Assembly (NCBI GenBank): GCA_036562765.1
Contig: DATCJO010000210.1
Coordinates: forward strand, 1 to 55,438
From: Tissierellaceae bacterium
GTDB taxonomy: Bacteria > Bacillota > Clostridia > Tissierellales > Tissierellaceae
DNA: 55,438 nucleotides
Direction of reading: 5' to 3'
Shown: positions 29,012-51,575 of the stretch, piece after piece
How the letters are laid out: every line of letters starts with the position of its first letter
How positions within the stretch are numbered: the stretch's first letter is position 1
Notes under the pieces: model-generated
The model's database searches: none
The model's input: the letters and a program-made list of their open reading frames with translations, nothing else
Told to the model about the DNA's origin: nothing
Program-made: the position numbers and the translations under genes

Positions 29012-29079
29012 ACATAAAATATACGATTATATCTTCACTCTTCACTATTCATTATATTAACTCTTCACTAAATAAAAAG

Positions 29080-29152
29080 TGGGCGGTATAGGGCTCGAAC
29101 CTACGACTTCCACCATGTCAAGGTGGTACTCTACCAGCTGAGTTAACCGCCC
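29080..29152 (-). tRNA. tRNA-Val, anticodon GAC.
   Basis: On the minus strand it reads GGGCGGTTAACTCAGCTGGTAGAGTACCACCTTGACATGGTGGAAGTCGTAGGTTCGAGCCCTATACCGCCCA. This folds as a cloverleaf with a 7/7 acceptor stem, a TTCGAGC T-loop and the anticodon loop TTGACAT. CCA is not encoded. Confidence 0.8.
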
Positions 29153-29288
29153 AGATTTGTATTTATAATGTTACCATAAATTTAGCTAATTATCAATAGA
29201 GGTATAAAAATCAATTTCTGATAATAATAGATTTATTAAAGCCTTTGGAGTATAATATTATTTATTGGAGGTGTAACAGTTGAATAGA

Positions 29289-29378
29289 ATGAAGATGACT
29301 AAAATAATCATTTTTCTATTGCTCATATCTATGGCAATAGCAGCATTTATGCCTGTAATCCAGTTGATTTTATATTAA
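29289..29378 (+). CDS. Putative 29-aa hydrophobic micropeptide.
   Basis: A GGAGGTG RBS precedes MKMTKIIIFLLLISMAIAAFMPVIQLILY*. A 9-4-9 palindrome hairpin plus T-run terminator follows immediately. Confidence 0.3.
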   Translation: MKMTKIIIFLLLISMAIAAFMPVIQLILY

Positions 29379-29512
29379 ATTGTCATATGCTTATGACAAT
29401 TTTTTTGATTTAATTAACTTTAAATTTGGTATAAGAGTTTAAAGAGTATTCTTATAGTAAATAATCAAGCATAAGAAAAAATTTATTAATATACAAAAAA
29501 AGGAGATTAACT

Positions 29513-30310
29513 ATGTCAAAGGCAATCCTATCGTTGGGACTAACAACTATTGTAGGATTAACTATGGTATTGGGAAGCCTACTTACTTATTTAATTAAAA
29601 AGGAAAATAGGGAATTTTTATCCTTGTCTTTGAGTTTTTCCGCAGGGATTATGATATATACAGCATTTATGGCAATACTTCCAGAAGGTATTCACCTTTT
29701 GGAAGATAACTTGGGAGAACATGGTTATTATATAGCATTAGCTGCTTTTTTTGGAGGAATGTTTTTAACTTCACTGATTGAGAAGGCAGTCCATAAGCTT
29801 GGAGGCCATTCTCATGGCATTGAAGCTGAAGAACATAGTGAGCATAATCATCATACAAATAATCTGGGGATTATGTCTGCCATAGCAGTTGCTATTCATA
29901 ATTTACCAGAAGGACTTGCAGTGTATACAACAGGGCTTAAGGATTTATCCTTAGCTATTCCAATAGCCATAGGAGTTATACTGCATAATATTCCATTAAG
30001 TGTAGCAATTACAATGCCTATGTTTTACGCAACAGGTTCCAGAAAGAGGGGCCTTATATATTCTTTAATTGTTGGCCTATGTCAGCCTCTTGGTGCAGTT
30101 GTCGGATATCTTTTCCTATCAAATTATCTTAATGATACAGTACATGGAATTCTCTTTTCAATAGTAGCAGGGATAATGATATTTATTTCATTAGATGAGC
30201 ATATCCCTACATCTAAAAAAGATGACAACCACCATCTAGGCATTTATGTTACCATATTGGGAATGATAGTCATGGCACTGGCCTTGAATTTTATACATCA
30301 TCACCATTAG
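29513..30310 (+). CDS. zupT: ZIP-family zinc/iron permease (ZupT-like).
   Basis: It has the HNLPEGLAV and HNIPLS ZIP signatures, a His-rich loop (HSHGIEAEEHSEHNHH) and a C-terminal HHHH. Confidence 0.85.
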   Translation: MSKAILSLGLTTIVGLTMVLGSLLTYLIKKENREFLSLSLSFSAGIMIYTAFMAILPEGIHLLEDNLGEHGYYIALAAFFGGMFLTSLIEKAVHKLGGHSHGIEAEEHSEHNHHTNNLGIMSAIAVAIHNLPEGLAVYTTGLKDLSLAIPIAIGVILHNIPLSVAITMPMFYATGSRKRGLIYSLIVGLCQPLGAVVGYLFLSNYLNDTVHGILFSIVAGIMIFISLDEHIPTSKKDDNHHLGIYVTILGMIVMALALNFIHHHH

Positions 30311-30332
30311 TTCTGTATACACCTCCTATTTT

Positions 30333-30602
30333 TTGTCAATAATACAAAAAATAGGAGGTGTTCTTATGTTTGATTTTAAAGAAAGAAATGATGAAATAGA
30401 GGAAATCCTTGAAAGTTTAGAACATGCCCACAATGAATGGAAGAAAAAGGAAAAGTTCTTTCAAGAAGTAACTGATCCAGATTTGATAGATGTGGCCATA
30501 TATGAACTTGAAGCATCAAAGATAAAATATATCTATCTATTAAAAAAATTAAGGGAAGCGATGGGAATAAAAAAGGCAATGGCAGACAACGAAGCTAAAT
30601 AA
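30333..30602 (+). CDS. yaaL: YaaL/DUF2508 family protein.
   Basis: 89 aa. The FFQEVTDPDLIDVAIYELEASKIKYIYLLKKLRE block resembles B. subtilis YaaL, and the gene sits directly upstream of bofA as in Bacillus. Confidence 0.6.
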   Translation: MSIIQKIGGVLMFDFKERNDEIEEILESLEHAHNEWKKKEKFFQEVTDPDLIDVAIYELEASKIKYIYLLKKLREAMGIKKAMADNEAK

Positions 30603-30670
30603 TAAGTAATATTTTCCTATTGCCTCCTATATTATAATATAAGATATAGATAGGATATAGGAGGGATACA

Positions 30671-30931
30671 ATGGGACTTAATACAATTTTTTATTATGCT
30701 GCTGGCCTGATTATGTTATATATATTGGGGCTTATTCTTGTTTGGCCTATAAAGAAAATAATGAAATTGATATTTAATGGAATTTTAGGTGGAATTACAT
30801 TGTTGATATTTAATTTCATTGGAAAATTTTTTGGACTGAGTTTGGCAATAAATCCTATAAATGCCTTGATAGTAGGGTTTTTAGGAGTACCTGGTGTTAT
30901 ACTGCTTTTGATTTTGCAAGTTCTTTTGTAG
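30671..30931 (+). CDS. bofA: Pro-sigma-K processing inhibitor BofA.
   Basis: 86 aa with two TM segments. The C-terminal LIVGFLGVPGVILLL motif is present and the gene follows yaaL. Confidence 0.75.
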   Translation: MGLNTIFYYAAGLIMLYILGLILVWPIKKIMKLIFNGILGGITLLIFNFIGKFFGLSLAINPINALIVGFLGVPGVILLLILQVLL

Positions 30932-31012
30932 GACATGGTATGGTTTACAGAAACTGGTAACTTGTGCTATACTTAAATTATGTAAACAAAAAACCAAGGA
31001 GGGGGTATATAA

Positions 31013-31645
31013 ATGACAGCACCTAAGTTGCAAGTAGAGAGAAGAGAAGAAACAGGAAAAAATGCAGCTAGGCGATTGAGAAGGGAAAATATGATTCCTG
31101 CTGTTATTTATGGGAAGGGAGAAGATAACATAAATGTAAAAGTGGATTCATCAGAGTTTTTGAAAATAAATAGAGGTACAGGGACTTCAGCACTAATTGA
31201 TTTAGAATTAGAAGGGAAAACAATACCTGTTGTAGTAAAAGAAGTACAAAAGCATCATCTAAAGGACCAAGTTGTCCATATTGATTTTCAAAGATTAAAT
31301 ATGAATGAAGAAGTAAGGTTGACTATACCTATAGTATTGTTAAATAGAGATAATATAAGGCTTCAACCTTCAGTATTAGTTCAATTGTTAGATGAAATCG
31401 AAATCGAATGCTTACCAGCTCATATACCACCTGCTGCACAGGTAGATGTTCAATATATGGACTTCTCAACTCCAATAACTGTTAAGGACTTGGATATAGC
31501 TAAAAACGAAAACATAACCATATTAAGGGATTTAGATGATATTGTATGTACCTTAACGCCACCATCTGCTCCAAGCGATGAGGAAGAAGAAGAGGAAACT
31601 GGCATACCAGAAGCTACTGAAGCAAGTGAAAATAGGATGGAATAA
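31013..31645 (+). CDS. rplY: 50S ribosomal protein L25 / general stress protein Ctc.
   Basis: RENMIPAVIYGKG.. is the L25 N-terminal signature. Length is 210 aa with an acidic tail. Confidence 0.9.
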   Translation: MTAPKLQVERREETGKNAARRLRRENMIPAVIYGKGEDNINVKVDSSEFLKINRGTGTSALIDLELEGKTIPVVVKEVQKHHLKDQVVHIDFQRLNMNEEVRLTIPIVLLNRDNIRLQPSVLVQLLDEIEIECLPAHIPPAAQVDVQYMDFSTPITVKDLDIAKNENITILRDLDDIVCTLTPPSAPSDEEEEEETGIPEATEASENRME

Positions 31646-31770
31646 TTGAGCTACAAAACCTATATAGAGTTTTCTATATAGGTTTTTTGCATATTAGGGT
31701 AAAATTATTAGTGAATAGTTAATAGTGAATAGTTATTCACTATTCACTAAATAAGTGAGGTGTTGTTTTT

Positions 31771-33180
31771 ATGGGTAAAGTTTTAGGTGCAGTAATTTCC
31801 CCCCATCCTCCTATAATCGTTTCAGAAATTGGGAGGGGAGAAGAAGTAAAGGCCCAAAATACCATTGATGGGGTTAAGGCTGTAAGCAGTTACATAAAAG
31901 AAAAGTCCCCAACTACTATTATAGTCATTACTCCCCATGGGCCCCTATTTAGCGATGCCATAAGTATATCAGCGGAAAGAAATCTATATGGGGATTTTGG
32001 AAATTTCTGGCATAAAGAAGTAAAGCTTGAGTTTGAAAATAATCTTGAACTTATGAAGAAAATTATCAACAATAGTCTAAAAGAAGGTATAAGGATAGTA
32101 GCAATAGACAATTCAACAGCTAGAAGGTATAGGGTTGAGAATAAATTAGACCATGGCACAATGGTTCCCCTATATTTTGTGGATAAAGTCTATAAAAACT
32201 TTAAACTTATCCACATAACTTATGGTTTGTTGTCTCCACAGGAACTTTATAAATTCGGAAGGTGTATAAAAGAAGCAGTATTAGATTCTGACGATGATGT
32301 AATTTTGCTTGCAAGTGGAGACTTGTCTCACAGGCTGTCTCATGATGGTCCATATCCATATTCGCCTTATGGAAGAGTCTATGATGAAAAAATAGTTGAT
32401 GTCATTAGAAAAGGGAATATGGAAGATATAGTAACCTTTGATTTAGAACTGGCAGAAAGGGCAGGAGAATGCGGTTTAAGGTCATTTATGGTAATGGCAG
32501 GATTTTTAGATGGTTATAAAGTAGAATCAGAAGTATTTTCCTATGAAGGGCCCTTTGGAGTAGGATACTGTACAGCCAAGTTGGATATTAAAGGGGAGGA
32601 TTCAGATAAAGATATGTTGAAAATCCTAAAGGAAAGGGAAAGAATGAAAATAGAAGAGTTGAGAAAAAATGAAAGCCCCTATGTAAGGCTTGCAAGGATG
32701 AGCCTAGAACATTATATAAAAACAGGGAAATATATAGATGTTCCCCCTGACACTCCTGAAGAACTTCTAAAGGCTAGGAGAGGTGTTTTTGTGTCTTTAA
32801 AGAAAAATGGCATGTTGAGAGGATGTATAGGAACCATTGAACCTGTAACAGAAAATGTTGCCCATGAAATCATTAGAAATGCAGTTGCTGCAGGTACTGA
32901 GGACCCTAGATTTGATGAGGTTACTGAGGATGAATTGGATTCAATAGTATATTCTGTTGATGTATTGTATGAACCTGAAAAGGTCAATTCAAAGGATGAA
33001 TTAGATGTGGAGAAATATGGAGTCATTGTTTCATGCGGATTTAGAAGGGGTTTGCTTCTTCCTAATTTAGAGGGTGTAGATACAGTGGATGAGCAAATAA
33101 GCATAGCATTAAGGAAAGCCAATATAAGTCCTTATGAAGACTATACCATTGAGAGATTTAGGGTTGACAGATATTATTAA
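31771..33180 (+). CDS. Fusion protein with an N-terminal class-III extradiol dioxygenase/MEMO1-like (LigB superfamily) domain and a C-terminal AMMECR1 domain.
   Basis: The N-terminus reads VISPHPPIIVSEIG. The C-terminal AMMECR1 core is RGVFVSLKKNGMLRGCIGT. A radical-SAM partner is encoded immediately downstream. Confidence 0.7.
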   Translation: MGKVLGAVISPHPPIIVSEIGRGEEVKAQNTIDGVKAVSSYIKEKSPTTIIVITPHGPLFSDAISISAERNLYGDFGNFWHKEVKLEFENNLELMKKIINNSLKEGIRIVAIDNSTARRYRVENKLDHGTMVPLYFVDKVYKNFKLIHITYGLLSPQELYKFGRCIKEAVLDSDDDVILLASGDLSHRLSHDGPYPYSPYGRVYDEKIVDVIRKGNMEDIVTFDLELAERAGECGLRSFMVMAGFLDGYKVESEVFSYEGPFGVGYCTAKLDIKGEDSDKDMLKILKERERMKIEELRKNESPYVRLARMSLEHYIKTGKYIDVPPDTPEELLKARRGVFVSLKKNGMLRGCIGTIEPVTENVAHEIIRNAVAAGTEDPRFDEVTEDELDSIVYSVDVLYEPEKVNSKDELDVEKYGVIVSCGFRRGLLLPNLEGVDTVDEQISIALRKANISPYEDYTIERFRVDRYY

Positions 33181-33182
33181 AG

Positions 33183-34172
33183 GTGTTGGTAGATATGAAA
33201 GAAGCCATGTACTATAAAAAAGGAAATAACAAAGAGGTCTACTGCGTTCTTTGCCCTCACTACTGCAAGATAAAGGACGGAAATAAAGGAAGGTGTAGAG
33301 CTAGAAAGAACATAGATGGCACCCTCTATACTTTAAACTATGGCAAAGTCACCTCATACGCTTATGACCCAATAGAAAAGAAGCCATTATATCATTTTTA
33401 TCCAGGAAGCTATATTTTTTCCATAGGCAGTTTCGGATGCAATTTGGCCTGTGAGTTCTGCCAGAATTGGGAAATAGTCTATGAGCAGTCCTTAGTCATC
33501 GATGTATCAGATGAAGAAATCATTACCCTTGCCAAAAGCAATGATTCCATAGGTATAGCTTTTACTTACAACGAACCAAGCATATGGTATGAATATGTCC
33601 TTGATATTTCAAAGAAAACTAAGGAATTAGGATTAAAAAATGTTTTGGTTACCAATGGGTATATAAACCAAGAGCCCTTGGAAGAGATATTGCCCTATAT
33701 CGATGCCATGAATATTGACTTAAAATCCTTCAATGACTTTTATTATAGGCATTATTGCAAAGGGACTTTAGAGCCTGTATTAAGGACTATTGAGATTGCA
33801 GCAAAAAAAACCCATGTGGAAATAACGACTTTGTTGGCAGGTAGCGAAAATTCGTCTTCTGAGGAAATTGAGAATTTAGCCAAGAGAATAGCGGAGATAA
33901 ATAAATCCATTCCTCTTCATTTCAGCAGGTATTTTCCTGCATATAAGATGAAAATTCCTCCAACTAAATTGGAAATTTTAGTGGAGGCTCAAAAAATAGC
34001 AAGAAAATATCTTGATTATGTTTATATAGGCAATGTATGGGGGATAGACAATAATACCTATTGTCCAAAGTGCCATGAGAAATTGGTTGATAGGACATTG
34101 AGGAAGAAAGTCATGTCCGTAGAAAATGGAAAATGCAGCAAATGCCAGTACAAAATAAATTTAATATATTAA
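33183..34172 (+). CDS. AmmeMemoRadiSam-system radical SAM enzyme (PflA-like activase family).
   Basis: It has the CVLCPHYC..C N-terminal Cys cluster and the CNLACEFCQNW radical-SAM CxxxCxxC motif. The likely start is the ATG at 33195 behind an AAAGGTG RBS. Confidence 0.8.
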   Translation: MLVDMKEAMYYKKGNNKEVYCVLCPHYCKIKDGNKGRCRARKNIDGTLYTLNYGKVTSYAYDPIEKKPLYHFYPGSYIFSIGSFGCNLACEFCQNWEIVYEQSLVIDVSDEEIITLAKSNDSIGIAFTYNEPSIWYEYVLDISKKTKELGLKNVLVTNGYINQEPLEEILPYIDAMNIDLKSFNDFYYRHYCKGTLEPVLRTIEIAAKKTHVEITTLLAGSENSSSEEIENLAKRIAEINKSIPLHFSRYFPAYKMKIPPTKLEILVEAQKIARKYLDYVYIGNVWGIDNNTYCPKCHEKLVDRTLRKKVMSVENGKCSKCQYKINLIY

Positions 34173-36613: not shown

Positions 36614-36940
36614 GTGAAATTAATTATCTGTATAGTACAGGACCAAGATGCTGGAGCATTAATAGATGATTTAACTCAACATCAATTTAGGGTAACTAAA
36701 TTGTCTTCTACAGGAGGGTTCTTAAAATCAGGGAATACCACTTTGCTAGTTGGTGTTGAAGAAAAAGAAGTTGATTCTGTTTTGAGAATTATAGAAGAAA
36801 ACTGTAAGACTAGGGAAATTACAACATCCTTAATGACAATGAATATGCCAGGAGATACCTATATGCCATTCCCACTAGAAATTAGAGTAGGCGGTGCTAC
36901 AGTGTTCGTGTTGGATGTAGAAAAGCATATTAAGGTATAG
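36614..36940 (+). CDS. darA: P-II-like c-di-AMP receptor DarA (YaaQ/DUF970).
   Basis: 108 aa. MKLIICIVQDQD..FRVTKLSSTGGFLKSGNTTLLVGVEE..VGGATVFVL is close to B. subtilis DarA along the full length. It has a GTG start with a GGGGAG RBS. Confidence 0.8.
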   Translation: MKLIICIVQDQDAGALIDDLTQHQFRVTKLSSTGGFLKSGNTTLLVGVEEKEVDSVLRIIEENCKTREITTSLMTMNMPGDTYMPFPLEIRVGGATVFVLDVEKHIKV

Positions 36941-36951
36941 GAGGGAATGAT

Positions 36952-37236
36952 TTGAAACTCATAATTGCCATTATTCAGGATGATTATATAAATATGGTAA
37001 TAAAAGCATTAATGAATAATAAAATAAGGGCTACAAAACTTGCTTCAACTGGTGGATTTTTAAAGTCAGGGAATACTACACTGCTTATAGGTGTAAATAA
37101 CGACGAAGTAGACAAAGTAGTTGAATTGATTAGTGAACAATGTAAAAGCAAGAATGTCAAGTCTGGAAAAGGTGAAGTAACAGTTGGAGGAGCAAACTTA
37201 TTCATCATAGACATTGATAGGCATATAAAACTTTAA
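36952..37236 (+). CDS. Second DarA-like (DUF970) paralogue with a shorter C-terminus.
   Basis: 94 aa. MKLIIAIIQDD..IRATKLASTGGFLKSGNTTLLIGV. It has a TTG start 6 nt after an AGGAGGG RBS. It occupies the slot that yaaR holds in B. subtilis. Confidence 0.7.
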   Translation: MKLIIAIIQDDYINMVIKALMNNKIRATKLASTGGFLKSGNTTLLIGVNNDEVDKVVELISEQCKSKNVKSGKGEVTVGGANLFIIDIDRHIKL

Positions 37237-39743: not shown

Positions 39744-39772
39744 AAAAAAAAGACCCTTTCGGGTCTTTTTTA
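39744..39772 (+). terminator. Rho-independent terminator of the ferredoxin gene.
   Basis: A8-GACCC-TTTC-GGGTC-T6. Confidence 0.75.
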
Positions 39773-39783
39773 GTACATTTTAA

Positions 39784-39816
39784 CAATGCACAATGCACAA
39801 TTCACAATGCACAATT
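39784..39816. repeat. Tandem heptamer array (CACAAT[GT])n, which is ATTGTG[CA] on the other strand.
   Basis: It reads caatgcacaatgcacaattcacaatgcacaatt. Confidence 0.8.
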
Positions 39817-39822
39817 ATATTT

Positions 39823-39884
39823 AGTGAATAGTTCAGGTAAGCAGCGAAATTTACTCCTATAAATTATTAACTTTTCACTATTCA
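39823..39884. repeat. Inverted-repeat element AGTGAATAGTT, about 43-bp core, then CACTATTCA.
   Basis: The terminal inverted repeats match the element at 41612-41692, and the cores are homologous (AGGTA.G(A)AGC..AAAT..TATAAA..TTAAC.TTTT). Confidence 0.7.
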
Positions 39885-39911
39885 TTATTAATTAAGATAT
39901 TAATAATTGAG

Positions 39912-39976
39912 AATTGTGCATTCTTCATTGTGAATTAATTACAATTGTGCATTAAACATTGTGAATTGTGAATTGA
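39912..39976. repeat. ATTGTG[CA] heptamer array in the opposite orientation to 39784-39816.
   Basis: It reads aattgtgcattc..attgtgaatta..aattgtgcattaaacattgtgaattgtgaattg. Confidence 0.8.
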
Positions 39977-39998
39977 TAAAAGTAGAAAGGTGTTGTTA

Positions 39999-41574: not shown

Positions 41575-41611
41575 CAAATACACCAAATATAGTTAATAGT
41601 GTATAACGAAT

Positions 41612-41692
41612 AGTGAATAGTTTAGGTATGAAGCAAATAAATTCGCTTCTACTATAAAAAACTTTTTAACCTTTTACTATTCACTATTCACT
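41612..41692. repeat. Inverted-repeat element AGTGAATAGTT, about 53-bp core, then ACTATTCACTATTCACT.
   Basis: It has the same termini and a related core to the element at 39823-39884. Confidence 0.7.
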
Positions 41693-41704
41693 ATTAACTT
41701 TACC

Positions 41705-41761
41705 AATTCACAATTTAATCAATTATATAAATGGAAAAAATTGTGAATTGTGCATTGTGAA
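41705..41761. repeat. Operator/promoter-like unit with the layout AATTCACAATT, TCAATTATATAAATGGAAA, AATTGTGAATTGTGCATTGTGAA (copy A).
   Basis: It is nearly identical to 42776-42835. Internally it is palindromic (TTCACAAT...ATTGTGAA) and ends in the ATTGTG[AC] heptamers. Confidence 0.75.
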
Positions 41762-41924
41762 CTGATGAAGGGGGCTGGTTTTCATTTACAACATACACAA
41801 TGACCTAAAGGAGAAAATTAGCAGCTTAAACGACCTATTATACGAAAAATACAATACCATATTTTCTCAAGATAGAGAGTTTTTAAGAACGTTTATAAGA
41901 CAATATATCGGGCAAATTAAACCC

Positions 41925-42773
41925 ATGGAAAAGCTTGATAATAAGCATCTTGCTTTATATGAGGCAAAAGGTGGTATTGTTGGAGTAGATGGATCTACAA
42001 ACAGAGTAGGTGGAAGTTACCCTCACTTTGTAGAAGTCTTTCAAGGTTTAGCCAAATCCACTTTAATGAAGGACGAGCCTATCTATAAGGCAGATATTTA
42101 TTCCCCACTGTTTTCAAATATTCAAAAGAATGTTTTGGAAGAAGACGAAAAGAAGGAAATAGAAACTAAAAACAGATTATTATCTGACATTGAGGTAAAA
42201 GTTGCATTGGAGGCTGTAAAAAGATATAAGCCCTTTGGAGTATTAATGGATGGTTCATTAATTAGATACTATATATATTCCTATGATTTATGGATGCAGT
42301 TAAGAAGTGAATGTGAAGAAAAAGGTATTATACTTGTAGGAGTTATAAAGGATATAAAAACAACGATAATAGGCGACAAGCTTGGCGACGTTTACCCACA
42401 ATTTAGGATAAATGCCTATGACAGGGAGCTGTTGTTTGGAATATTAGATTATGGGGAAGTAATAATCATTGATGATGATGTAAACAGCAAGAAGAAATCA
42501 GGATATTCGTCTGTTTTCATGAGGTCTTCACGATCCCCAGCAGTTATTGGAATGGATATAATAGACAGTCAAAAGGATTATTTGGAAGAAATGAGTAGAC
42601 TTATCTTTACTTTGACACCAGAAAACAGCAGAGGAGTACCTTTATGGCTTGATTTGGTAGATAAGGAAGTCCAAATTTCCGATGCCCTAATGAAGGGATT
42701 GCTTGAAAGGTACTTGGACAGGGGCTTATATGAAAGATTTTTCGTATCAGAAAGAGCTAAAAGAACTTTATAA
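41925..42773 (+). CDS. NurA-like nuclease (RNase-H-like fold). The 5' end is uncertain because the frame stays open upstream to about 41769.
   Basis: 282 aa. There are two DGS motifs (GIVGVDGS and VLMDGSL) plus acidic clusters, as in NurA motifs. It sits directly upstream of a HerA-like ATPase. Confidence 0.5.
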   Translation: MEKLDNKHLALYEAKGGIVGVDGSTNRVGGSYPHFVEVFQGLAKSTLMKDEPIYKADIYSPLFSNIQKNVLEEDEKKEIETKNRLLSDIEVKVALEAVKRYKPFGVLMDGSLIRYYIYSYDLWMQLRSECEEKGIILVGVIKDIKTTIIGDKLGDVYPQFRINAYDRELLFGILDYGEVIIIDDDVNSKKKSGYSSVFMRSSRSPAVIGMDIIDSQKDYLEEMSRLIFTLTPENSRGVPLWLDLVDKEVQISDALMKGLLERYLDRGLYERFFVSERAKRTL

Positions 42774-42775
42774 TA

Positions 42776-42901
42776 ATTCACAATTCACAGTTTTATCAAT
42801 TATATAAATGGAAATAATTGTGAATTGTGCATTGACTAAGTGCATTGTGAATTAATTAAGTGAATTGTGCATTATAAATTGATTTAGTGCATTGTGAATT
42901 G
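42776..42901. repeat. Copy B of the operator-like unit plus an extended GTGCATTGTGAATT array.
   Basis: It reads aattcacaattcacag..tcaattatataaatggaaat aattgtgaattgtgcattg ..agtgcattgtgaatta..agtgaattgtgcatta..agtgcattgtgaattg, and lies immediately upstream of the HerA-like gene RBS. Confidence 0.75.
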
Positions 42902-42918
42902 ACAAAGGAGGTGTTTCT

Positions 42919-44766
42919 ATGAAAGTAGTTGGCATAACTACCCAACAGGAAGTTTACATAGGCTCTAGGGATAGAAACTTTAGAATAAATGAATTTGTAG
43001 TAATTGAAGATCCGCAACAAAAGGATTTATTGGGGGAAGTCGTTGAAGCATATACCTTTAATAGATATATTCCTCTAAACATTGGCGGAGATTTCATAGA
43101 CAATTCTGTTTTGGAATCCTTAAAGTCTTTGGGTTATAATATAGACGAAGAGACTATTTATGTTGCAAAAGTAAGGTTACTAAACGAAGCTTTATATCCA
43201 ATTCAAACTGGTTCAGATGTAAGGCTGCCTAAGTTTAATGAAATAAAGAACCTAATGATTAAGGCGACCAAGGAAGATGGCTTGGTTTTAGGAACTATTA
43301 GGAATACAGACGATATGGCAGGTGAAATGGACCAAGAATTTAAGAATCTATTATATACCTTTGAAGACAATGAGTTATGCCCTCAAAGGGAAATTCCATT
43401 TATATTGGATTTGAAATCCATGTACCAGTATCCTCACATAGGTGTCTTTGGTGGTTCTGGCTCAGGCAAGTCCTTTGGCCTTAGGGTAATACTTGAGGAG
43501 TTAATGAGGCACAATATACCAACTATCGTATTAGATCCCCATTTTGAAATGGACTTTAGTGAAAATGCACCATATTTTGAAAACAGCGAAATAGATTTTA
43601 CTGATAGATTTAAATGCTTGCAAGTAGGATACCATGTTGGTGTAAAATTCCAGGATTTAAGTCCTCAAGATTTAAAAAACCTACTAGATGCTGCATCGCC
43701 AATTACGGATGCTATGAACAATGCAGTAGATGTATTGTTTAAATATAATGATTCATTTCAAAGTTTTTATGATAGAATAAAGATGTTAATTGAAGCTCAA
43801 GAAGAAGGTTCTTTAGAAAAAATTGAAAACAGGATAAACCAAGCGGAAAATGAAGAGGAAAGAAAAGCATGGGAGAAAAGAAAAGAACTCTATTTGTCCT
43901 ATGATAAGACATGCCCATACAGCTCTGTTAGAGGCATAATGTGGAGGTTAAAAAGGCTAGACAATGAAGGCATATTTTCTAAGGATATAAGAGAGATTGA
44001 AGATGGTCTTCAAAGAGGAAAACTGATTGTCATTCAAGGTAATACTAGGATACTTCAAGTATTCAGTACCTATCTATTAAATAACCTTTATCATAAGAGA
44101 AGGGATTATAAGGATTCACAGTACAAGAATACACCTTCTGATTATTTCCCACCATTTATAATAGTTACTGATGAAGCCCACAATTTTGCACCAAAGGGTT
44201 ATAACTCCCCATCCAAGTCAATATTGAAGGAAATATCTCAAGAAGGAAGAAAATACGGAGTATTTCTAATTTTAGCTACCCAAAGGCCTACCCTCTTGGA
44301 TGAAACCATTACTGCTCAGTTAAATACTAAATTTATCTTCAGAACCGTAAGGGCCTCAGACATTCAAACTATAAAGGAAGAAACAGACCTTACTGTAGAA
44401 GAAACAAGAAGGCTTCCATATTTGAGAACAGGAGATGTGTTTATATCTTCTGCAGCTATGGGAAGAACCATATTTGCAAGAATAAGGGCAGCTATTACAT
44501 CTAGCCCCCATACAGAAAACCCATTTGATGAATTGAAAAATAAGGAAAAAGAAGACGAGGATAGATTTTTAAATATGATAAAGACCAAACTTCCCATAAT
44601 GGAAACCGACTTAATAAATCTCATATCAGAACTGGAAAAGGAATATGATGTTACATTTACTGTGAATTCTTTGGAAGATAGGTTAAAAACACTAGCAAAA
44701 AAAGGATTGATATGTAGGGAAGAAACAATTTTTGGGTATAAATATTATATTCCTAAAGCTAATTAA
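42919..44766 (+). CDS. HerA/FtsK-class ATPase (DUF87-type) with a C-terminal extension of about 100 aa.
   Basis: Strong AGGAGG RBS. Walker A is GVFGGSGSGKSFGL and Walker B is FIIVTDEAHNF. An N-terminal beta-barrel-like region is followed by a RecA-like core. Confidence 0.7.
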   Translation: MKVVGITTQQEVYIGSRDRNFRINEFVVIEDPQQKDLLGEVVEAYTFNRYIPLNIGGDFIDNSVLESLKSLGYNIDEETIYVAKVRLLNEALYPIQTGSDVRLPKFNEIKNLMIKATKEDGLVLGTIRNTDDMAGEMDQEFKNLLYTFEDNELCPQREIPFILDLKSMYQYPHIGVFGGSGSGKSFGLRVILEELMRHNIPTIVLDPHFEMDFSENAPYFENSEIDFTDRFKCLQVGYHVGVKFQDLSPQDLKNLLDAASPITDAMNNAVDVLFKYNDSFQSFYDRIKMLIEAQEEGSLEKIENRINQAENEEERKAWEKRKELYLSYDKTCPYSSVRGIMWRLKRLDNEGIFSKDIREIEDGLQRGKLIVIQGNTRILQVFSTYLLNNLYHKRRDYKDSQYKNTPSDYFPPFIIVTDEAHNFAPKGYNSPSKSILKEISQEGRKYGVFLILATQRPTLLDETITAQLNTKFIFRTVRASDIQTIKEETDLTVEETRRLPYLRTGDVFISSAAMGRTIFARIRAAITSSPHTENPFDELKNKEKEDEDRFLNMIKTKLPIMETDLINLISELEKEYDVTFTVNSLEDRLKTLAKKGLICREETIFGYKYYIPKAN

Positions 44767-47009: not shown

Positions 47010-47061
47010 TATTGGCAAAAAATTATTAGGCTCTCTATATAGAGAGCCTAATAGTTTTCAA

Positions 47062-48093
47062 TTATTCAAGTATATATACTTTTACTTTCCTTTTGCCAAA
47101 TTTAGCTACATCTTGTGAGTTTTCAAAGAATAAGTCAATCCTATTTCCCTTGATTGCTCCTCCTGTATCTTCAGCTACAGCAAAACCATAATCTTTTGAT
47201 CCATCTAGGCTTTGGATATATAATTTTGTACCTAGTGGAATTACCTTAGGGTCTACAGCTACAACACCTGGCCTAGCCTTTGTGCCAGAAGCTGTTATGC
47301 CGTAGTATTTATCCCCTGGCAGCTTTTTACAGCTTTCATATGATAAATCATAGGCAGTTGCTGTCATAACAATGGCTTTTTTATACCTGACACTGCCTCT
47401 TGATGTCACAAGAATATCTTTTGTGCCTCTTTCCATAATTTCATTTATGGGTTCTGTAATTACCTCTTGCCCCACTATTATAGTTGAGGCAACTTGACCA
47501 TTAACGATTTCCTTTTTAACAGTAACTTTTCTAAGCCCATCTTTACCTTTTTGGATAGTCCTTGTTGTTCCAATATCCAATTTTGGATTTTTATTAACAA
47601 CTTTTTCAAAAGGAATAACCTCATCATATGTTTCAAAAACTTCTTCAACCCTGTAGACTTCTATTGTACTTCCAGGGGATACTTTTTCTTCCAAACTTGG
47701 ATTAGTGAAATCCTTCTCTCCTAGTTGTATGCTATTGTCAGCCAAAATGCTTTTTACAGTATCATGGGTTGATTTCACATCTACTAACACTTTATCCACT
47801 GAAATAGTGTACACTTTCGGATTTTTTATAACAATAGTCATGTTGTCTACAAGGGTTACATCTAATGGGTGGCTTATGTAAGCCCCTTCTTCCAATGTTA
47901 TATTTTCTTTTAGGAGAAGTTCTTCCAATGTATTAGCATTTGAGGTAAAAGATTTTTCTTCATTGTCTAAGATTATGGTAACTTTAGTTAAATTGCTTTG
48001 ATATAAGTATATTCCTAAGGATATAGTTAATGCTATAGCTAGGAGTATCAATACTGGAATTTTCTTCTTCCAATTTGTTGGTTGAGTTTCCAT
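47062..48093 (-). CDS. yabE: YabE-like protein with TM/DUF348, a G5 domain and a 3D (MltA-like) domain.
   Basis: N-terminal TM. The G5 segment is TIQKGKDGLRKVTVKKEIVNGQV and the C-terminal 3D domain is VAVDPKVIPLGTKLYIQ..AVAEDTGGAIKGNRIDLFF. Confidence 0.8.
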   Translation of the reverse strand: METQPTNWKKKIPVLILLAIALTISLGIYLYQSNLTKVTIILDNEEKSFTSNANTLEELLLKENITLEEGAYISHPLDVTLVDNMTIVIKNPKVYTISVDKVLVDVKSTHDTVKSILADNSIQLGEKDFTNPSLEEKVSPGSTIEVYRVEEVFETYDEVIPFEKVVNKNPKLDIGTTRTIQKGKDGLRKVTVKKEIVNGQVASTIIVGQEVITEPINEIMERGTKDILVTSRGSVRYKKAIVMTATAYDLSYESCKKLPGDKYYGITASGTKARPGVVAVDPKVIPLGTKLYIQSLDGSKDYGFAVAEDTGGAIKGNRIDLFFENSQDVAKFGKRKVKVYILE

Positions 48094-48278
48094 ATTATAC
48101 CTCCTATTTTTTAACTATTTATGTATTGTATCCAATAAAAATTATTTTGTCAAATTTTTGAAGTAGAAGACATAATATTCTGAAAAAAACATCATATTTT
48201 TTATTATATATCTTGTACAATCTATATGTTATACAAAAACTGGATAATTATACATTTTTTAATAAAAAAACATGTTAG

Positions 48279-48307
48279 TTGACTAAAATTTTTACTTTGA
48301 GTATAAT
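48279..48307 (+). promoter_or_regulatory. SigA promoter of the metG leader.
   Basis: TTGACT-N17-TATAAT. Confidence 0.55.
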
Positions 48308-48309
48308 AA

Positions 48310-48600
48310 TATATCAAATAAGGTAAAATATAGAAATGACATTAAAAATTGCAAATTCAAAGGTAGTGAAGGGGAGAGTAGGATAAATTTTAATCTAAAG
48401 AGAGCTGGGTAAGGTGAAAGCCAGTGATTAAAATTATTCCGAAGATGGCCCCGGAACCTTGTGGTCGATATGTAGGCCACGACGGAAGCAGCCGTTACGC
48501 TGTAAGGTTTTAAACCTACTGAGGCCTAAATCGCAAGATTTAGGCGAATTAGAGTGGTACCACGAAGTCAACCTTCGTCTCTAAGAGATGAAGGTTTTTT
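48310..48600 (+). ncRNA. T-box riboswitch leader, Met-specific, controlling metG.
   Basis: It has an AGAGAG box in stem I, a candidate specifier AUG at 48445-48447, the T-box sequence AATTAGAGTGGTACCACG at 48547-48564, and a terminator AACCTTCGTCTC/GAGATGAAGGTT followed by T6. Confidence 0.7.
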
Positions 48601-48623
48601 ATTTAGTTAATTTCCAACAGGAT

Positions 48624-48690
48624 AACTATTCATTAATTAGTTATTCACTATATTTACTATTGATTGTTAACTATTAACTATTCACTATTA
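48624..48690. repeat. Cluster of ACTATTCA(CT) motif copies between the T-box terminator and metG.
   Basis: It reads aactattcatta, ttattcacta and aactattcactatta. Confidence 0.55.
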
Positions 48691-48723
48691 ACTATTAACT
48701 AAAAATATGGGGGGTTATGAGAA

Positions 48724-50670
48724 GTGAAAAAATACTACTTGACTACACCAATTTATTATCCTTCTGACAATCTACACATTGGACACACTTACACAACAGT
48801 AGCTGCAGATGTAATTAAGAAGTTTAAGAAGATGCAGGGATACGATGTATATTTTGTTACAGGTACTGATGAACACGGACAAAAAATTCAAAACAAGGCA
48901 AAGGAAAATGGATTAAGTCCAAAGGAATATGTAGATAAAATTGTTGCAGATATTAAAAAACTTTGGAAGCTGTTAGAAATTGATTATGACACTTTCATAA
49001 GGACCACAGACCCACAACATGAAAAAGCAGTTCAGGACATATTCATGAAGTTGTATGAAAAAGGAGAAATATATAAGTCAACATATAAGGGCCTTTACTG
49101 TACTCCTTGCGAATCTTTCTGGACAGAGTCCCAATTAGTAGATGGAAAATGTCCAGATTGCCATAGAGAAGTTCATCCTGCAGAAGAAGAAGCATATTTC
49201 TTCAGGCTTTCAAAGTATAGGGATAAGCTGTTAAAGTTTTATGAAGAACATCCAGATTTTATCCAACCTGAATCTAGGAAAAACGAAATGATTAATAACT
49301 TCTTAAAAGATGGTTTGGAAGATTTATGCGTAACAAGAACAAGCTTTGACTGGGGAGTTAAGGTTCCTTTTGATCCAAAACATGTAATATATGTATGGAT
49401 AGACGCCTTAGCTTGCTATATTACAGCTTTAGGATATGGTTCAGATAACGATGAGAACTTCAAAAAATATTGGCCAGCTGATGTCCACCTAGTTGGCAAG
49501 GAAATTGTCAGGTTCCACACCATAATATGGCCAGCACTTTTAATGGCTTTAGGATTAGATATACCAAAGAAGGTATTTGGCCATGGCTGGATATTGTTTG
49601 AGGACGATAAGATGTCTAAGTCTAAAGGAAATGTAATTTATCCTGAACCACTTATTGAATTATACGGTATAGATGCATTTAAATACTTCTTATTGAGGGA
49701 ATTCTCCTTTGGCCAAGATGGAAACTTCAGCAGGGAAAAATTCTTGCAAAGATTAAACTCCGACTTGGCAAATGACTTAGGAAACTTGGTAAGCAGAACT
49801 GTTACCATGATTCAAAAATACAATGATGGAGTAATACCATCACCAGCAGTGGAAGAAGAAATAGATAAGTCCTTGAAAGATTTGGCTGTTAGTATTGCAC
49901 CTAAAGTTGAAGAATACATGGACCAACTAAACTTCTCACAAGCATTAGAGGAAATATGGAAGCTAATTAGAAGGACAAACAAGTATATAGATGAAACTAC
50001 ACCATGGATTTTGGGAAGCGAAGGCAGGAAAGATAGGCTTGATACAGTACTTTACAACCTAACTGAATCCTTAAGGATTATAACAATATTGATTAAGCCA
50101 TTTATGGAAAAGACATCCTTAGAAATAAGAAGGCAATTAGGAATTGATGGAGAAATCTTGTGGGAAGATTCAAAGGTTTGGGGTAAACTAGAAGTAGGTG
50201 GAAAAGTAGGAGATAGGAAGATAATATTCCCAAGGCTTGACATTCAAAAAGAATTGCAAAAACTAAATGAAGCTAATGAAAAGCTAATAATAGAAAGAAG
50301 CAAAGTGAAGAAGGAAAATAAAGAAGAAGCTAAAGAGGAAATAGAAGAAATTACAATCGACGACTTTAAAAAAGTTCAATTAAGGGTAGCAGAAGTTATT
50401 TCTTGCGAAAACCATCCTAATGCTGATAAACTATATGTATTGAAGTTGAAATTAGGGGAAGAAGAACGACAAGTCGTATCAGGAATTAAAAAATACTATA
50501 AACCAGAGGACCTAGTAGGCAAAAAGGTAGTAGTAGTTGCAAACTTAAAGCCTGTGAAACTTAGAGGTGTTGAATCTAAGGGAATGATATTGGCTGCAGA
50601 AGACACAGAAGGAAATCTTACTTTAGTATCAACCCTAGAAGACATAGCTTCCGGTGCAACAATTTCATAA
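48724..50670 (+). CDS. metG: Methionyl-tRNA synthetase with a C-terminal EMAP/Trbp111-like tRNA-binding domain.
   Basis: It has the HIGH motif (NLHIGH), KMSKS, a zinc knuckle CTPCESF..CPDC, and a C-terminal OB-fold (VAEVISCENHPNADKLYVLKL). Confidence 0.95.
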   Translation: MKKYYLTTPIYYPSDNLHIGHTYTTVAADVIKKFKKMQGYDVYFVTGTDEHGQKIQNKAKENGLSPKEYVDKIVADIKKLWKLLEIDYDTFIRTTDPQHEKAVQDIFMKLYEKGEIYKSTYKGLYCTPCESFWTESQLVDGKCPDCHREVHPAEEEAYFFRLSKYRDKLLKFYEEHPDFIQPESRKNEMINNFLKDGLEDLCVTRTSFDWGVKVPFDPKHVIYVWIDALACYITALGYGSDNDENFKKYWPADVHLVGKEIVRFHTIIWPALLMALGLDIPKKVFGHGWILFEDDKMSKSKGNVIYPEPLIELYGIDAFKYFLLREFSFGQDGNFSREKFLQRLNSDLANDLGNLVSRTVTMIQKYNDGVIPSPAVEEEIDKSLKDLAVSIAPKVEEYMDQLNFSQALEEIWKLIRRTNKYIDETTPWILGSEGRKDRLDTVLYNLTESLRIITILIKPFMEKTSLEIRRQLGIDGEILWEDSKVWGKLEVGGKVGDRKIIFPRLDIQKELQKLNEANEKLIIERSKVKKENKEEAKEEIEEITIDDFKKVQLRVAEVISCENHPNADKLYVLKLKLGEEERQVVSGIKKYYKPEDLVGKKVVVVANLKPVKLRGVESKGMILAAEDTEGNLTLVSTLEDIASGATIS

Positions 50671-50716
50671 AATTATAATAGATAAAAAATCGTTAAATTG
50701 TTGAAGGAGATGGAAA

Positions 50717-51487
50717 ATGCTATTAATAGACAGCCATGCACATTTAGATGATGAGAGATTTGATAAGGACAGGGATGAATTAATAAGAAGCCTAGAAAGC
50801 AATGGAATTGAGCTGGTGATTAATGTTGGTGCTGATTTAAAGTCCAGTATTGCATCAGTATCGCTGGCTGAAAAATATCCAAACATCTATGCAGCAGTTG
50901 GAGTTCATCCCCATGATGTTAAGGACATGGATGAATCAACATTAGAAATAATAAAATCTCTGGCAAAAAGGGATAAGGTTGTAGCCATTGGAGAAATCGG
51001 ATTAGATTATTACTATGATAATTCTCCAAGGGAAGACCAGAGAAAATGGTTTAAAAGGCAGTTGGAATTAGCAAAGGAGCTAGGCTTGCCAGTTATTATA
51101 CACTCTAGAGATGCTCAACAGGAAACCTTCGACATCATAAAAGAAGCCCAAGATGGGAGATTAAGAGGTGTAATGCACTGTTACTCTGGCAGCAAGGAAA
51201 TGGCAAATGAATACATTAAACTTGGCTTTTACATTTCCATTGCAGGGCCAGTTACCTTTAAGAATGCAAGGGTAGTAAAGGAAGTTGCTAAAGAAGTTCC
51301 TCTAGATAAGCTTCTTGTTGAAACAGACAGCCCATACCTTGCTCCAGAACCTCATAGGGGAAAACGAAACGAGCCCATTTTTGTGAAGTTCGTAGCAGGT
51401 ACCATAGCTGAAATCAAAGGAATATCCTTTGAAGAACTAGCTAAGGCTACAAATAGGAATACTAAAGAATTGTTTGGGATTAAATAA
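50717..51487 (+). CDS. tatD: TatD-family DNase/hydrolase.
   Basis: IDSHAHLD is the N-terminal metal-binding motif. Length is 256 aa. Confidence 0.9.
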   Translation: MLLIDSHAHLDDERFDKDRDELIRSLESNGIELVINVGADLKSSIASVSLAEKYPNIYAAVGVHPHDVKDMDESTLEIIKSLAKRDKVVAIGEIGLDYYYDNSPREDQRKWFKRQLELAKELGLPVIIHSRDAQQETFDIIKEAQDGRLRGVMHCYSGSKEMANEYIKLGFYISIAGPVTFKNARVVKEVAKEVPLDKLLVETDSPYLAPEPHRGKRNEPIFVKFVAGTIAEIKGISFEELAKATNRNTKELFGIK

Positions 51488-51551
51488 GCAGCGATTTACT
51501 CGCTGCTTATTAAATGCTTTATTTTATGAAATTATAGGGTATAATATTTAC

Positions 51552-51575
51552 AGTGAATAGTTAAGAGTGAATAGT
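51552..51575. repeat. Two direct copies of AGTGAATAGT, about 25 bp upstream of rnmV.
   Basis: It reads cAGTGAATAGTtaagAGTGAATAGTgaatt. Confidence 0.6.

Follow-up and report, generated by a model that had tools for sequence, protein, structure and literature searches.

Heptanucleotide repeat arrays in the intergenic spacers of a Tissierellaceae genome

The repeated sequences found in the intergenic spacers of a 55,438-nt contig from a Tissierellaceae metagenome-assembled genome (the whole of this stretch is referred to as the window) are best explained, with a probability which we put at roughly 60%, as short imperfect heptanucleotide simple-sequence repeats of the STRR/TAACTGA/GGGAATC kind, populating the intergenic spacers of Tissierella-clade genomes. 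They are a new example of the known, still unexplained bacterial heptanucleotide repeats, and their local peculiarities are nested inverted arrays forming hairpins and three pairs of homologous composites. We infer that the arrays are neither a regulon nor the binding site of a regulator.

Identification of the repeat unit

A dispersed 10-mer, AGTGAATAGT, had been described upstream of unrelated genes in a sequence-only reading of the window, and every copy was found at the position given for it. The exact 10-mer was present ten times in the window against 0.13 expected, a count reached by no shuffle, and the observation was thereby confirmed. With up to one mismatch there were 25 copies (4.95 expected), which take in the degenerate ones at 29037-29069 and 48625-48700. 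Since matches to the 10-mer overlap at a 7-bp offset (41676/41683/41690 and 48670/48677/48684/48691) the true unit is a heptamer, of which the 10-mer covers 1.4 copies; this unit, AGTGAAT/AGTTAAT, is repeated in tandem, head-to-tail and often as mirror-image arrays. The two-unit pattern AGTKAATAGTKAAT gave 16 matches in the window where 0.30 were expected. A second heptamer family, TGTGAAT/TGTGCAT, is related to the AGTGAAT family by one step and is located within the same spacers (39783-39815, 39904-39975, 41739-41761 and 42775-42901), with 12 two-unit matches in the window against 0.16 expected. Single substitutions link the variants AGTGAAT, AGTTAAT, TGTGAAT, TGTGCAT, TGTCAAT and TGTCCAT into a network. 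The earlier reading had overlooked both this second family and the tandem period of 7 bp, on which the classification turns.

Tandem Repeats Finder (TRF) placed the starts of period-7 arrays at 29032, 31705, 31734, 39783, 39858, 39958, 41589, 41676, 41739, 42775, 42816, 48651 and 51552. Ten period-7 arrays in the window had at least three units, and all ten were intergenic, spread over seven spacers between 29 and 52 kb. Scanning the window for other periods gave no arrays of period 8-12 and no intergenic arrays of period 6, while the autocorrelation of intergenic DNA peaked at lag 7. The window thus has what defines a heptanucleotide simple-sequence repeat: at least three head-to-tail units, more often than by chance, with period 7 dominant and in non-coding DNA. 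The seven array-bearing spacers, from a total of approximately 27, all fall within one half of the window; within the window and the loci fetched from relatives, the unit family was found in these seven spacers, across 23 kb, and in the relatives.

Arrangement of the arrays

The genes downstream of the arrays encode an M17 aminopeptidase, an AmmeMemoRadiSam fusion, a methyltransferase, NurA, a HerA-like ATPase, MetG and RnmV, and are functionally unrelated, as had been noted from the sequence. A degenerate array on the minus strand at 29031..29069 (AGTGAAG AGTTAAT ..AATGAAT AGTGAAG AGTGAAG) is flanked by the 3' end of tRNA-Val (29079-29152, minus) and by a hairpin with a T-run at approximately 28990-29015, with the M17 aminopeptidase gene downstream. 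All other arrays are described on the plus strand. At 31705..31749 a forward array (AGTGAAT AGTTAAT AGTGAAT AGTT) abuts an inverse array (ATTCACT ATTCACT) to give a palindrome or hairpin, and the palindrome AGTGAATAGTTATTCACT named in the earlier reading is present at 31724-31748. This array begins 4 nt past the -10-like sequence AGGGTAAAAT and stops 8 nt short of the Shine-Dalgarno sequence; the gene that follows is the LigB-Memo-AMMECR1 (AmmeMemoRadiSam) fusion. The forward array at 51552..51579 (AGTGAAT AGTTAAG AGTGAAT AGTGAAT) begins at the predicted +1, 6 nt past the -10-like AGGGTATAAT, and most of the rnmV 5' leader consists of it. The segment of -10 plus array at 31696-31737 resembles that at 51536-51575. 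Two unlinked promoters carry this cassette, AGGGTAWAAT-N4-6-AGTGAATAGTTAAK-AGTGAAT, with the array starting at the predicted +1, and the ortholog from the relative L007 retains the rnmV copy. The metG gene is preceded by a T-box leader (48357-48585), and an inverse-orientation array of ACTATTC/ACTATTA (up to 7.3 units, 21-bp higher-order period) occupies 48625..48705, with the T-box terminator on its 5' side and the metG Shine-Dalgarno sequence (GGGGGG, ~48707) on its 3' side. The ribosome-binding context AGGTGTTGTT, said to be shared by two downstream genes, occurs exactly twice, at both of the sites named.

The remaining spacers contain composites. Directly 3' of the fer4 terminator (39746-39771) is an outer left arm at 39780..39816, consisting of 4.7 units of CACAATG/CACAATT, the inverse of TGTGCAT/TGTGAAT. 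A type-A composite at 39823..39894 has AGTGAATAGTT, a core of approximately 35 nt and the inverse array ACTTTTCACTATTCATTATTAATTA, and an outer right arm at 39904..39979 has ATTGTGC/ATTGTGA units with a 31-bp higher-order period and stops about 10 nt short of AGGTG, the Shine-Dalgarno sequence of the methyltransferase gene. The other type-A composite, at 41589..41701, has a forward array (AGTTAAT AGTGTAT AACGAAT AGTGAAT AGTT), a core with an inner GAAGC/GCTTC hairpin and an inverse array (ACTATTC ACTATTC ACTATTA ACT), the stem being 14+4 bp. The core of the inverted-repeat-flanked copies, 39815-39895 and 41604-41702, could be aligned as claimed and the composites are homologous. A type-B composite at 41703..41761 (AATTCACAATT, core TAATCAATTATATAAATGGAAAAA, then ATTGTGA ATTGTGC ATTGTGA) is positioned about 10 nt before the Shine-Dalgarno GGGGG of NurA, the real start of which is near 41775, and is approximately 90% identical to 42778-42835. 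This second type-B composite and the TGTGAAT/TGTGCAT/AGTGCAT units after it, which show higher-order periods of 20 and 27 bp, occupy 42774..42901 and stop 4 nt short of the AGGAGG preceding the HerA-like ATPase gene.

Predicted hairpins immediately 5' of ribosome-binding sites, one of which (31705) would start at the predicted 5' end of its transcript, are what would be expected if the inverted arrays encoded a small RNA or a structured RNA regulating in cis, for example a hairpin that stabilises the 5' end or a site for RNase III processing in the leaders. However, we consider this highly improbable. Complementarity is automatic, as the arms are low-complexity repeats, and transcription across the full palindromes is only putative because they start right after terminators. 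The cores are not conserved between species, and the arrays at 48651-48705, 51552-51579 and 29031-29069 have no inverted partner and are unpaired. The comparison with Rfam covariance models that had been suggested gave no match for the arrays at gathering or permissive thresholds (nothing at E<=1), with the T-box leader and tRNA alone passing.

Variation within the species

Conspecific metagenome contigs, whose identity to the window was 99.55-99.96% across 5-21 kb, differed from it by four independent indels, and all four were inside arrays, which by a hand tally make up approximately 3% of the compared conspecific DNA. They comprise two of 14 bp, at 31709 and 39789, one of 40 bp at 42833-42873 and one of a single nucleotide at 48633. 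A 14-bp (two-unit) deletion allele of the 31705..31749 array was carried by five of nine conspecific contigs. Contig L140 had a 14-bp deletion allele of the 39780..39816 arm and a 40-bp (2 x 20) deletion allele of the 42774..42901 array, and contig L005 had the 1-nt allele of the 48625..48705 array. In the two 14-bp indels and the 40-bp one, whole units or entire higher-order blocks have come or gone within one species, which is the copy-number polymorphism of a heptanucleotide simple-sequence repeat. When compared with phase-variable contingency loci, these alleles adjoin housekeeping genes, not surface or restriction genes.

Occurrence in related species and other genomes

Heptamer arrays were also found in the orthologous spacers of species with 87, 85 and 81% MetG identity, where units, copy numbers, cores and arrangements differ from those of the window. 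The period-7, intergenic spectrum recurred in L007, L009, L010, Tissierella praeacuta (L414) and Paratissierella (L415), and was not found in the more distant L416. At an orthologous site in L009 the arms persist while the core differs. TGTGAAT-family arrays abutting a Shine-Dalgarno sequence always read ATTGTGA in the sense strand (~11 cases, ~6 independent loci), and the nested polarity of the AGTGAAT and TGTGAAT families was seen again in several genera. The same spacers of relatives also hold small mobile repeats, namely the GTCATYCTGARC hairpin family and an element of 238 bp, found in L007 and L009 at sites that are not orthologous.

In a public genome contig collection the three-unit pattern was found at 120 loci or more, in many phyla. 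In a viral contig collection it gave 108 stretches; two control heptamers of matched composition reached 82 and 47, and an octamer reached 34. Since control heptamers built arrays at close to the same rate in a large public collection, the AGTGAAT unit itself is not special. Inverted pairs are far more frequent at the loci of the window (6 pairs in 7 loci) than among heptamer arrays from elsewhere (14 of 135).

A lineage-specific protein that reads the heptad, with copy number setting occupancy and hence downstream expression, would account for one unit at many spacers, for arrays retained in orthologous spacers, for the constant polarity of TGTGAAT-family arrays beside the Shine-Dalgarno sequence and for the '-10 + array' cassette at two unlinked promoters, the rnmV copy of which is kept at 87% MetG identity. 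Such a protein might bind DNA at the +1, as a repressor or nucleoid protein, or RNA in the 5' leader, as a Csp-, S1- or HutP-like protein. The forward RNA contains UAG-N4-UAG-N4-UAG, the spacing of HutP sites. Binders of this sort were proposed by the authors of the Beggiatoa and Nostoc studies. We nevertheless regard this reading as unlikely. AGTGAAT-family arrays precede plus-strand genes in both orientations and stand in differing contexts (in a tRNA trailer, past a T-box terminator, at a predicted +1). Five of nine conspecific contigs lack two of the three forward units ahead of the AMMECR1 gene, the units change freely from species to species, no theme unites the downstream genes and no candidate binder was found. 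For five reasons (unrelated genes, both orientations, mixed contexts, copy-number variation within the species, and differing orthologous units and arrangements) the earlier suggestion of a global-regulator binding site was not supported. Where an operator would have a fixed position and orientation, linked genes and conservation in orthologs, we found mixed orientations and contexts and unrelated genes, the exception being the cassette common to two promoters.

The other suggestion, a small mobile or structural element, stood in part: the inverted copies fold to hairpins and three composite pairs are homologous beyond the repeat, but target-site duplications and defined ends are lacking and the polymorphisms take the form of whole-unit indels, the pattern of simple-sequence repeats. 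On the mobile reading, the core-bearing inverted copies would be small non-autonomous MITE- or REPIN-like elements with heptamer-built arms, and isolated arrays their remnants. The cores homologous beyond the arms (39815-39895 with 41604-41702; 41703-41761 with 42774-42835), the stable hairpins (z-scores -3.8, -7.95 and -2.7), the strictly intergenic location, the richness of the window in inverted pairs and the genuine small mobile repeats in the same spacers of relatives are consistent with such an origin. On inspection, however, the composites showed no target-site duplications or sharp ends, each has only two known copies, and local duplication is possible for the type-B pair, which flanks a single gene 1.1 kb apart. 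Arms outlast the core at the orthologous site in L009, and all observed polymorphisms were in-register unit indels, never gain or loss of a whole element. The window has no transposase, and no RAYT (Y1 transposase) was seen in its 55 kb or in loci fetched from relatives. Mobility is, in our estimate, unlikely. Like a MITE the composites have inverted arms, but flanking direct duplications are absent. A metagenome scan for the type-A core returned two chance matches only, and, as it missed the known copies too, it carries no weight either way.

Proposed mechanism and comparison with known repeats

Among the long simple-sequence repeats of bacteria, heptamers are the most abundant, and polymerase slippage has been proposed for them, according to the summary of Mrazek 2007 given in PMC4679880. 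For the simple-sequence repeats of the window, we suggest that replication slippage or unequal recombination lengthens and shortens the arrays, and that point mutation followed by re-amplification diversifies them. Inverted pairs may fold to hairpins, in DNA or in 5' leader RNA, with arms probably held complementary through intrastrand template switching. Slippage accounts for growth at one locus, not for one unit at six or more unlinked spacers, and leaves the persistence of arrays at orthologous spacers across deep divergence unaccounted for. The constant ATTGTGA polarity, the recurring nested polarity and the presence of arrays in 7 of ~27 spacers, in one half of the window, also count against the simple-sequence-repeat reading. 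Three pairs (39815-39895/41604-41702, 41703-41761/42774-42835 and 31696-31737/51536-51575) are alike beyond the repeat and therefore argue for some dispersal or selection.

Because arrays lie between a promoter or terminator and the ribosome-binding site, a change in copy number would alter leader length and hairpin strength, and may incidentally tune expression of the downstream gene, by analogy with the (TGAAAGA)n tract of Haemophilus influenzae hmw, which modulates expression (PMC2651432). The hmw1A/hmw2A tract (Dawid 1999; Power 2009) is likewise a heptanucleotide repeat between promoter and start codon, differs in copy number between strains, and is the sole compared case with a demonstrated effect on expression. 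The hmw tracts are long and perfect (13-38 units) at surface-protein contingency loci, whereas the arrays here are short, imperfect and placed before housekeeping genes.

The cyanobacterial STRR (short tandemly repeated repetitive sequences) of Calothrix, Nostoc and Anabaena and the Nostoc GGGGAYT/GACYAAT/TTTTGAA repeats are, as here, tandem 7-nt units in intergenic DNA near promoters or start codons, with a few lineage-specific units at many loci and some inverted pairs (PMC4692102; bioRxiv 10.1101/2022.06.06.494920). In contrast to STRR, the present arrays are from Bacillota (Tissierellia), have A+T-rich units without G-quadruplex potential, and are short (2-7 units), most of them being paired into nested palindromes. 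Xanthomonas and Nostoc repeats form inverted pairs and occupy the same spacers in related species with varying length and sequence (PMC4692102). Some inverted pairs of the Xanthomonas GGGAATC repeat (Rehm et al. 2015) can form stem-loops as here, but that repeat is G-rich, quadruplex-capable and without the nested two-family architecture of the window. REP/REPIN and MITE palindromes are also intergenic and hairpin-forming, with inverted arms round a short spacer and a few homologous copies at different loci; the arms here differ in being internally tandem-repetitive and changing by whole units, without defined ends or target duplications. The TAACTGA repeats of marine Beggiatoaceae sit just upstream of start codons (MacGregor 2015), in sets of 2-6 copies before unrelated genes including housekeeping genes, as here. 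TAACTGA is almost always in one orientation and replaces the Shine-Dalgarno sequence, whereas our arrays occur in both orientations with a canonical Shine-Dalgarno sequence after them, and inverted pairs are the rule. TAACTGA shares a TAACT core with TAACTAT, the inverse of AGTTAAT.

A heptanucleotide unit underlies the dispersed 10-mer

The sequence-only reading had described a 10-mer, AGTGAATAGT, dispersed near unrelated genes, and its excess was confirmed in the window, where 10 exact copies were found compared to 0.13 expected and 25 copies with one mismatch compared to 4.95 expected, all at or beside the places where the motif had first been noticed. Several of the matches overlapped at a 7-bp offset, and Tandem Repeats Finder revealed period-7 arrays at every 10-mer site, in agreement with a lag-7 identity scan, indicating that the 10-mer corresponds to 1.4 units of a heptamer. 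Within this heptamer AGTGAAT alternates with AGTTAAT, AGTGAAG or AATGAAT being rare, and the two-unit pattern AGTKAATAGTKAAT was matched 16 times in the window (0.30 expected). A second family, TGTGAAT/TGTGCAT, which differs from the first by one substitution and was absent from the sequence-only reading, occupies the same spacers (12 two-unit matches, 0.16 expected).

Using a uniform criterion of at least three units and at least 86% lag identity, 10 period-7 arrays were obtained in the window, 10 of 10 intergenic, while periods 8–12 gave no arrays and period 6 no intergenic arrays. Lag-7 autocorrelation peaked in intergenic DNA and not in coding DNA. Only 7 of approximately 27 spacers carried arrays, all between 29 and 52 kb.

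Genomic context of the arrays

Placement of the arrays among the window spacers was heterogeneous. They were located in the tRNA-Val trailer ahead of a hairpin and T-run, just downstream of a -10-like AGGGTAWAAT, where the +1 is predicted, for both the LigB-Memo-AMMECR1 fusion gene and rnmV, immediately 3' of the fer4 terminator, and between the T-box leader terminator (48357-48585, Rfam 128.9 bits) and the metG Shine-Dalgarno sequence. The genes downstream (M17 aminopeptidase, AmmeMemoRadiSam fusion, methyltransferase, NurA, HerA-like ATPase, metG, rnmV-ksgA) share no common functional theme. With unrelated downstream genes, heterogeneous contexts and failure of the features that define an operator or regulon, the proposal that the motif is a global regulator site is not supported. 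The Rex operator is TTGTGAA-N6-TTCACAA and that of Fur/PerR has a 7-1-7 layout; these, the CtsR operator, the Spo0A 0A box, VirR/LytTR boxes, DnaA boxes and Rok AACTA sites were all rejected on spacing, symmetry and tandem 7-bp register.

The window also contained a LigB-Memo-AMMECR1 triple fusion with the partner radical-SAM gene downstream of it (31771-34172, AmmeMemoRadiSam system), two adjacent cyclic-di-AMP receptor genes (36614-37236, CdAMP_rec, DarA-like) and, in a Firmicute, a NurA/HerA-like pair (41775-44766). The mechanical ORF start of NurA is at 41925; since a further 50 codons upstream are conserved with the N-terminus of NurA in the related-species contig L007, the true start, a non-ATG codon, lies near 41775, just after GGGGG at 41771, so that about 10 nt separate an ATTGTGA array and the Shine-Dalgarno sequence. 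On the minus strand at 42898-42871 an array yields a near-consensus predicted sigma-70-like promoter (TTCACA-16-TATAAT, 11 of 12 matches) which would read antisense into NurA. A consensus scan for promoters and terminators over 39.4-43 kb gave no excess of promoter-like sites (20 compared to 18.7 in shuffles).

Palindromic and nested layout

Inverted arrays were present in four spacers, with six inverted pairs in the seven loci of the window. A palindrome at 31705-31749 consists of a forward array joined directly to an inverse one, while 39780-39979 and 41589-41761 have the nested order (CACAATK)n, (AGTGAAT)n, core, (ATTCACT)n, (ATTGTGM)n, A-rich segment, Shine-Dalgarno sequence. Single-strand folds of three inverted-array regions gave -45.4 (z = -3.8), -47.3 (z = -7.95) and -15.4 kcal/mol (z = -2.7); the first two were more stable than every shuffle and the third than all but 2 of 200.

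Homology between copies extended beyond the repeat units. When the inverted-repeat-flanked copies were aligned, the core of 39815-39895 was alignable to that of 41604-41702 (type A, core motif AGGTA..AAGCA..AAATT), and 41703-41761 was approximately 90% identical to 42774-42835 (type B, core ATCAATTATATAAATGGAAA). A cassette of -10 element plus array at 31696-31737 is likewise homologous to 51536-51575, the latter also being retained in the L007 rnmV ortholog. The alternative proposal of a small mobile or structural element therefore stood in part: the hairpin folds and homologous composite pairs agree with it, while a MITE with target duplications failed. As for a described RNA family, Rfam covariance models left the arrays unmatched at both gathering and permissive thresholds, and in the window, L009 (a second related-species contig) and L415 (a Paratissierella contig) only the T-box leader and tRNA were detected. 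The first 20 nt or so of the tatD terminator hairpin AAGCAGCGATTTACTCGCTGCTT (51487-51510) are in common with the type-A core AAGCAGCGAAATTTACTCC (39838-39858), a resemblance which suggests that this core may be one half of a terminator that has decayed, or else a module common to both.

Variation within the species

Sixteen conspecific metagenome contigs were retrieved, 13 of which were compared to the window by BLAST (99.55-99.96% identity over 5-21 kb). Four indel events separated these contigs from the window, and all four fell within arrays. Two were 14-bp deletions, one at 39789 and the other, of two units, at 31709 in 5 of 9 contigs; the remaining two were a 40-bp deletion of two 20-bp blocks at 42833-42873 and a 1-nt indel at 48633. 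By hand tally, arrays account for about 3% of the DNA compared and for roughly one third of the non-coding DNA in it, and four of four events inside them is not expected by chance. Simple-sequence repeats or minisatellites behave in this way. A second species pair, L007 and its strain comparison partner L008, showed no array indels, so that whole-unit polymorphism is known from one species only.

Turnover between species

After the Tissierellaceae MAG itself, the next MetG relatives belonged to Tissierellia MAGs and to species of Tissierella. The comparison of syntenic loci covered L007, L009 and L010 (Tissierella sp. MB52-C2), with MetG identities of 87%, 85% and 81%, respectively. Heptamer arrays were also found in the orthologous spacers of all three; they differ from those of the window in unit (ATTGTCA, TGTCCAT, AGTAAAT, AGTGAAG), copy number and core. 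In L007 the fer4-to-methyltransferase spacer is a compact palindrome; in the window it is a nested structure of 200 bp, and in L009 it comprises a MITE plus ATTGTCA arrays. The L009 counterpart of the 41.6-kb element has kept the AGTGAAT and ATTCACT arms around an unrelated core. Single substitutions link the heptamer units into a chain, which is what mutation followed by amplification of the variants would be expected to produce. The period-7 spectrum was also observed in T. praeacuta (6 arrays in 22 kb) and Paratissierella segnis (7 arrays in 13 kb), and a more distant Tissierellaceae genome of 40% G+C had zero period-7 arrays.

Beside the Shine-Dalgarno sequence the TGTGAAT family always reads ATTGTGA, in approximately 11 cases from six genomes and perhaps six independent loci, a polarity taken from sequences read directly because a strict regular-expression count of orientation missed most arrays.

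In the metG leader the spacer from T-box terminator to Shine-Dalgarno sequence varied from about 50 nt in L009 to about 120 in the window, 190 in L007 and 400 or more in L010 and L415 (regions: window 48357-48723; L007 9640-10000; L009 9870-10000; L010 9590-10000; L415 9640-10000). Different small repeats fill it in each species, as if the segment tolerates insertions.

Specificity of the unit and comparison with known repeats

Three tandem AGTKAAT units were found at 120 or more loci in a one-genome-per-species collection. The matches listed came from Proteobacteria, Bacteroidota, Acidobacteriota, Chloroflexi, Cyanobacteria, Planctomycetes, Campylobacterota, Patescibacteria and Firmicutes as well as one Methanosarcina MAG, and approximately 90% of the arrays among them lay outside long ORFs. 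A specific pan-bacterial AGTGAAT element was nevertheless rejected, because in the viral_contigs collection composition-matched control heptamers of unrelated order were nearly as frequent (82 and 47 stretches compared to 108 for AGTKAAT; an octamer of the same length gave 34). In very large collections, heptamer arrays are common whatever their sequence. The idea that such arrays are generally paired in inverted orientation was also rejected, as only 14 of 135 arrays elsewhere had an inverted partner, about equal to the share with a separate direct partner; it is a peculiarity of this lineage. A scan of metagenome_contigs with the exact type-A core pattern returned two chance matches in unrelated coding DNA and missed the window's own two copies despite the conspecific JGI contig L131, so missing matches there do not mean that the type-A element is absent.

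Knowledge of heptanucleotide repeats goes back to 1990 (STRR); cyanobacteria and proteobacteria dominate the list of lineages that carry them, and to our knowledge neither the cause of the 7-nt period nor a general function has been established. The window arrays share with this class the tandem 7-nt units, excess over chance, period-7 dominance, confinement to non-coding DNA and whole-unit polymorphism, while they lack the defining features of an operator or regulon, of a MITE flanked by target duplications and of any curated RNA family. They are intergenic heptanucleotide repeats, a known class found here newly in a Bacillota (Tissierellia) lineage, in an unusually palindromic and nested layout. 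Natural alleles with whole-unit differences lie ahead of housekeeping genes, and binders, transcript ends and copy-number effects are testable in the cultured relatives T. praeacuta, T. pigra and Tissierella sp. MB52-C2. In genome annotation, dispersed "motifs" of this sort should be identified as simple-sequence repeats before any regulon is proposed.

As summarised in PMC4679880, Mrazek et al. (2007) found heptanucleotides to be the most abundant long simple-sequence repeats in prokaryotes and proposed a link to the DNA stretch held by polymerase. Tandem heptanucleotides occur in Calothrix and Nostoc, and GGGAATC in Xanthomonas (PMC4692102). In marine Beggiatoaceae 169 sets of TAACTGA lie just upstream of the start codons of unrelated genes, with Csp, S1 or CsrA put forward as binders (MacGregor 2015). 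Heptamer repeats at Nostoc recF and recO had modest reporter effects (bioRxiv 10.1101/2022.06.06.494920), and the upstream (TGAAAGA)n tract of H. influenzae hmw modulates expression with copy number (PMC2651432).

Possible origin and effect of the arrays

We infer that the arrays grow and shrink via replication slippage or unequal exchange. Variants could spread inside an array through re-amplification, and intrastrand template switching may keep inverted arrays complementary. A change in copy number would shift leader length and hairpin stability and in this way may tune the downstream gene. Two alternatives are retained since four points escape slippage: it gives no reason for one unit family seeding many spacers, and covers neither the persistence of arrays at orthologous spacers, nor the constant ATTGTGA reading beside the Shine-Dalgarno sequence, nor the -10 plus array cassette common to two promoters. 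Of these, a protein that binds the heptads and reads the arrays is unlikely, and a REPIN- or MITE-like dispersal mechanism slightly more so.

It is similarly doubtful that the arrays, rather than being products of passive slippage, form the arms of a self-propagating palindromic spacer element or serve a heptad-reading protein as its occupancy array, either of them specific to the Tissierella/Paratissierella clade. The signature of such a system, an equally tentative suggestion, would be the nested, polarity-fixed order stop/terminator-(ATTCACA)n-(AGTGAAT)n-core-(ATTCACT)n-(TGTGAAT)n-A-rich-SD. This order does recur in the window, L009 and Paratissierella, and in every case the ATTGTGA array sits against the ribosome-binding site. 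Were the proposal true, it would offer a tractable, culturable model for the long unexplained bacterial heptamer excess.

Other small repeats in related species

A 238-bp element with inverted ends aaaatgacaaat...atttgtcatttt, of which the window has none, is 81.5% identical between L007 (3890-4125) and L009 (1108-1342). Its two locations are not orthologous, being the NurA-to-HerA-like spacer in L007 and the fer4-to-methyltransferase spacer in L009; it looks like a genuine MITE-like mobile element. A hairpin repeat family, GTCATYCTGARC-N-GAAGRATC, had no Rfam match and no copy in the window. Its stems vary in a compensatory manner (ATTCT/AGAAT compared to ATCCT/AGGAT), with copies in L415 (5152-5540, 8893, 9705, 12835) and L009 (3013, 4201). 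The six copies in 12.9 kb of Paratissierella include three tandem units of about 128 bp, and the family often lies beside heptamer arrays.
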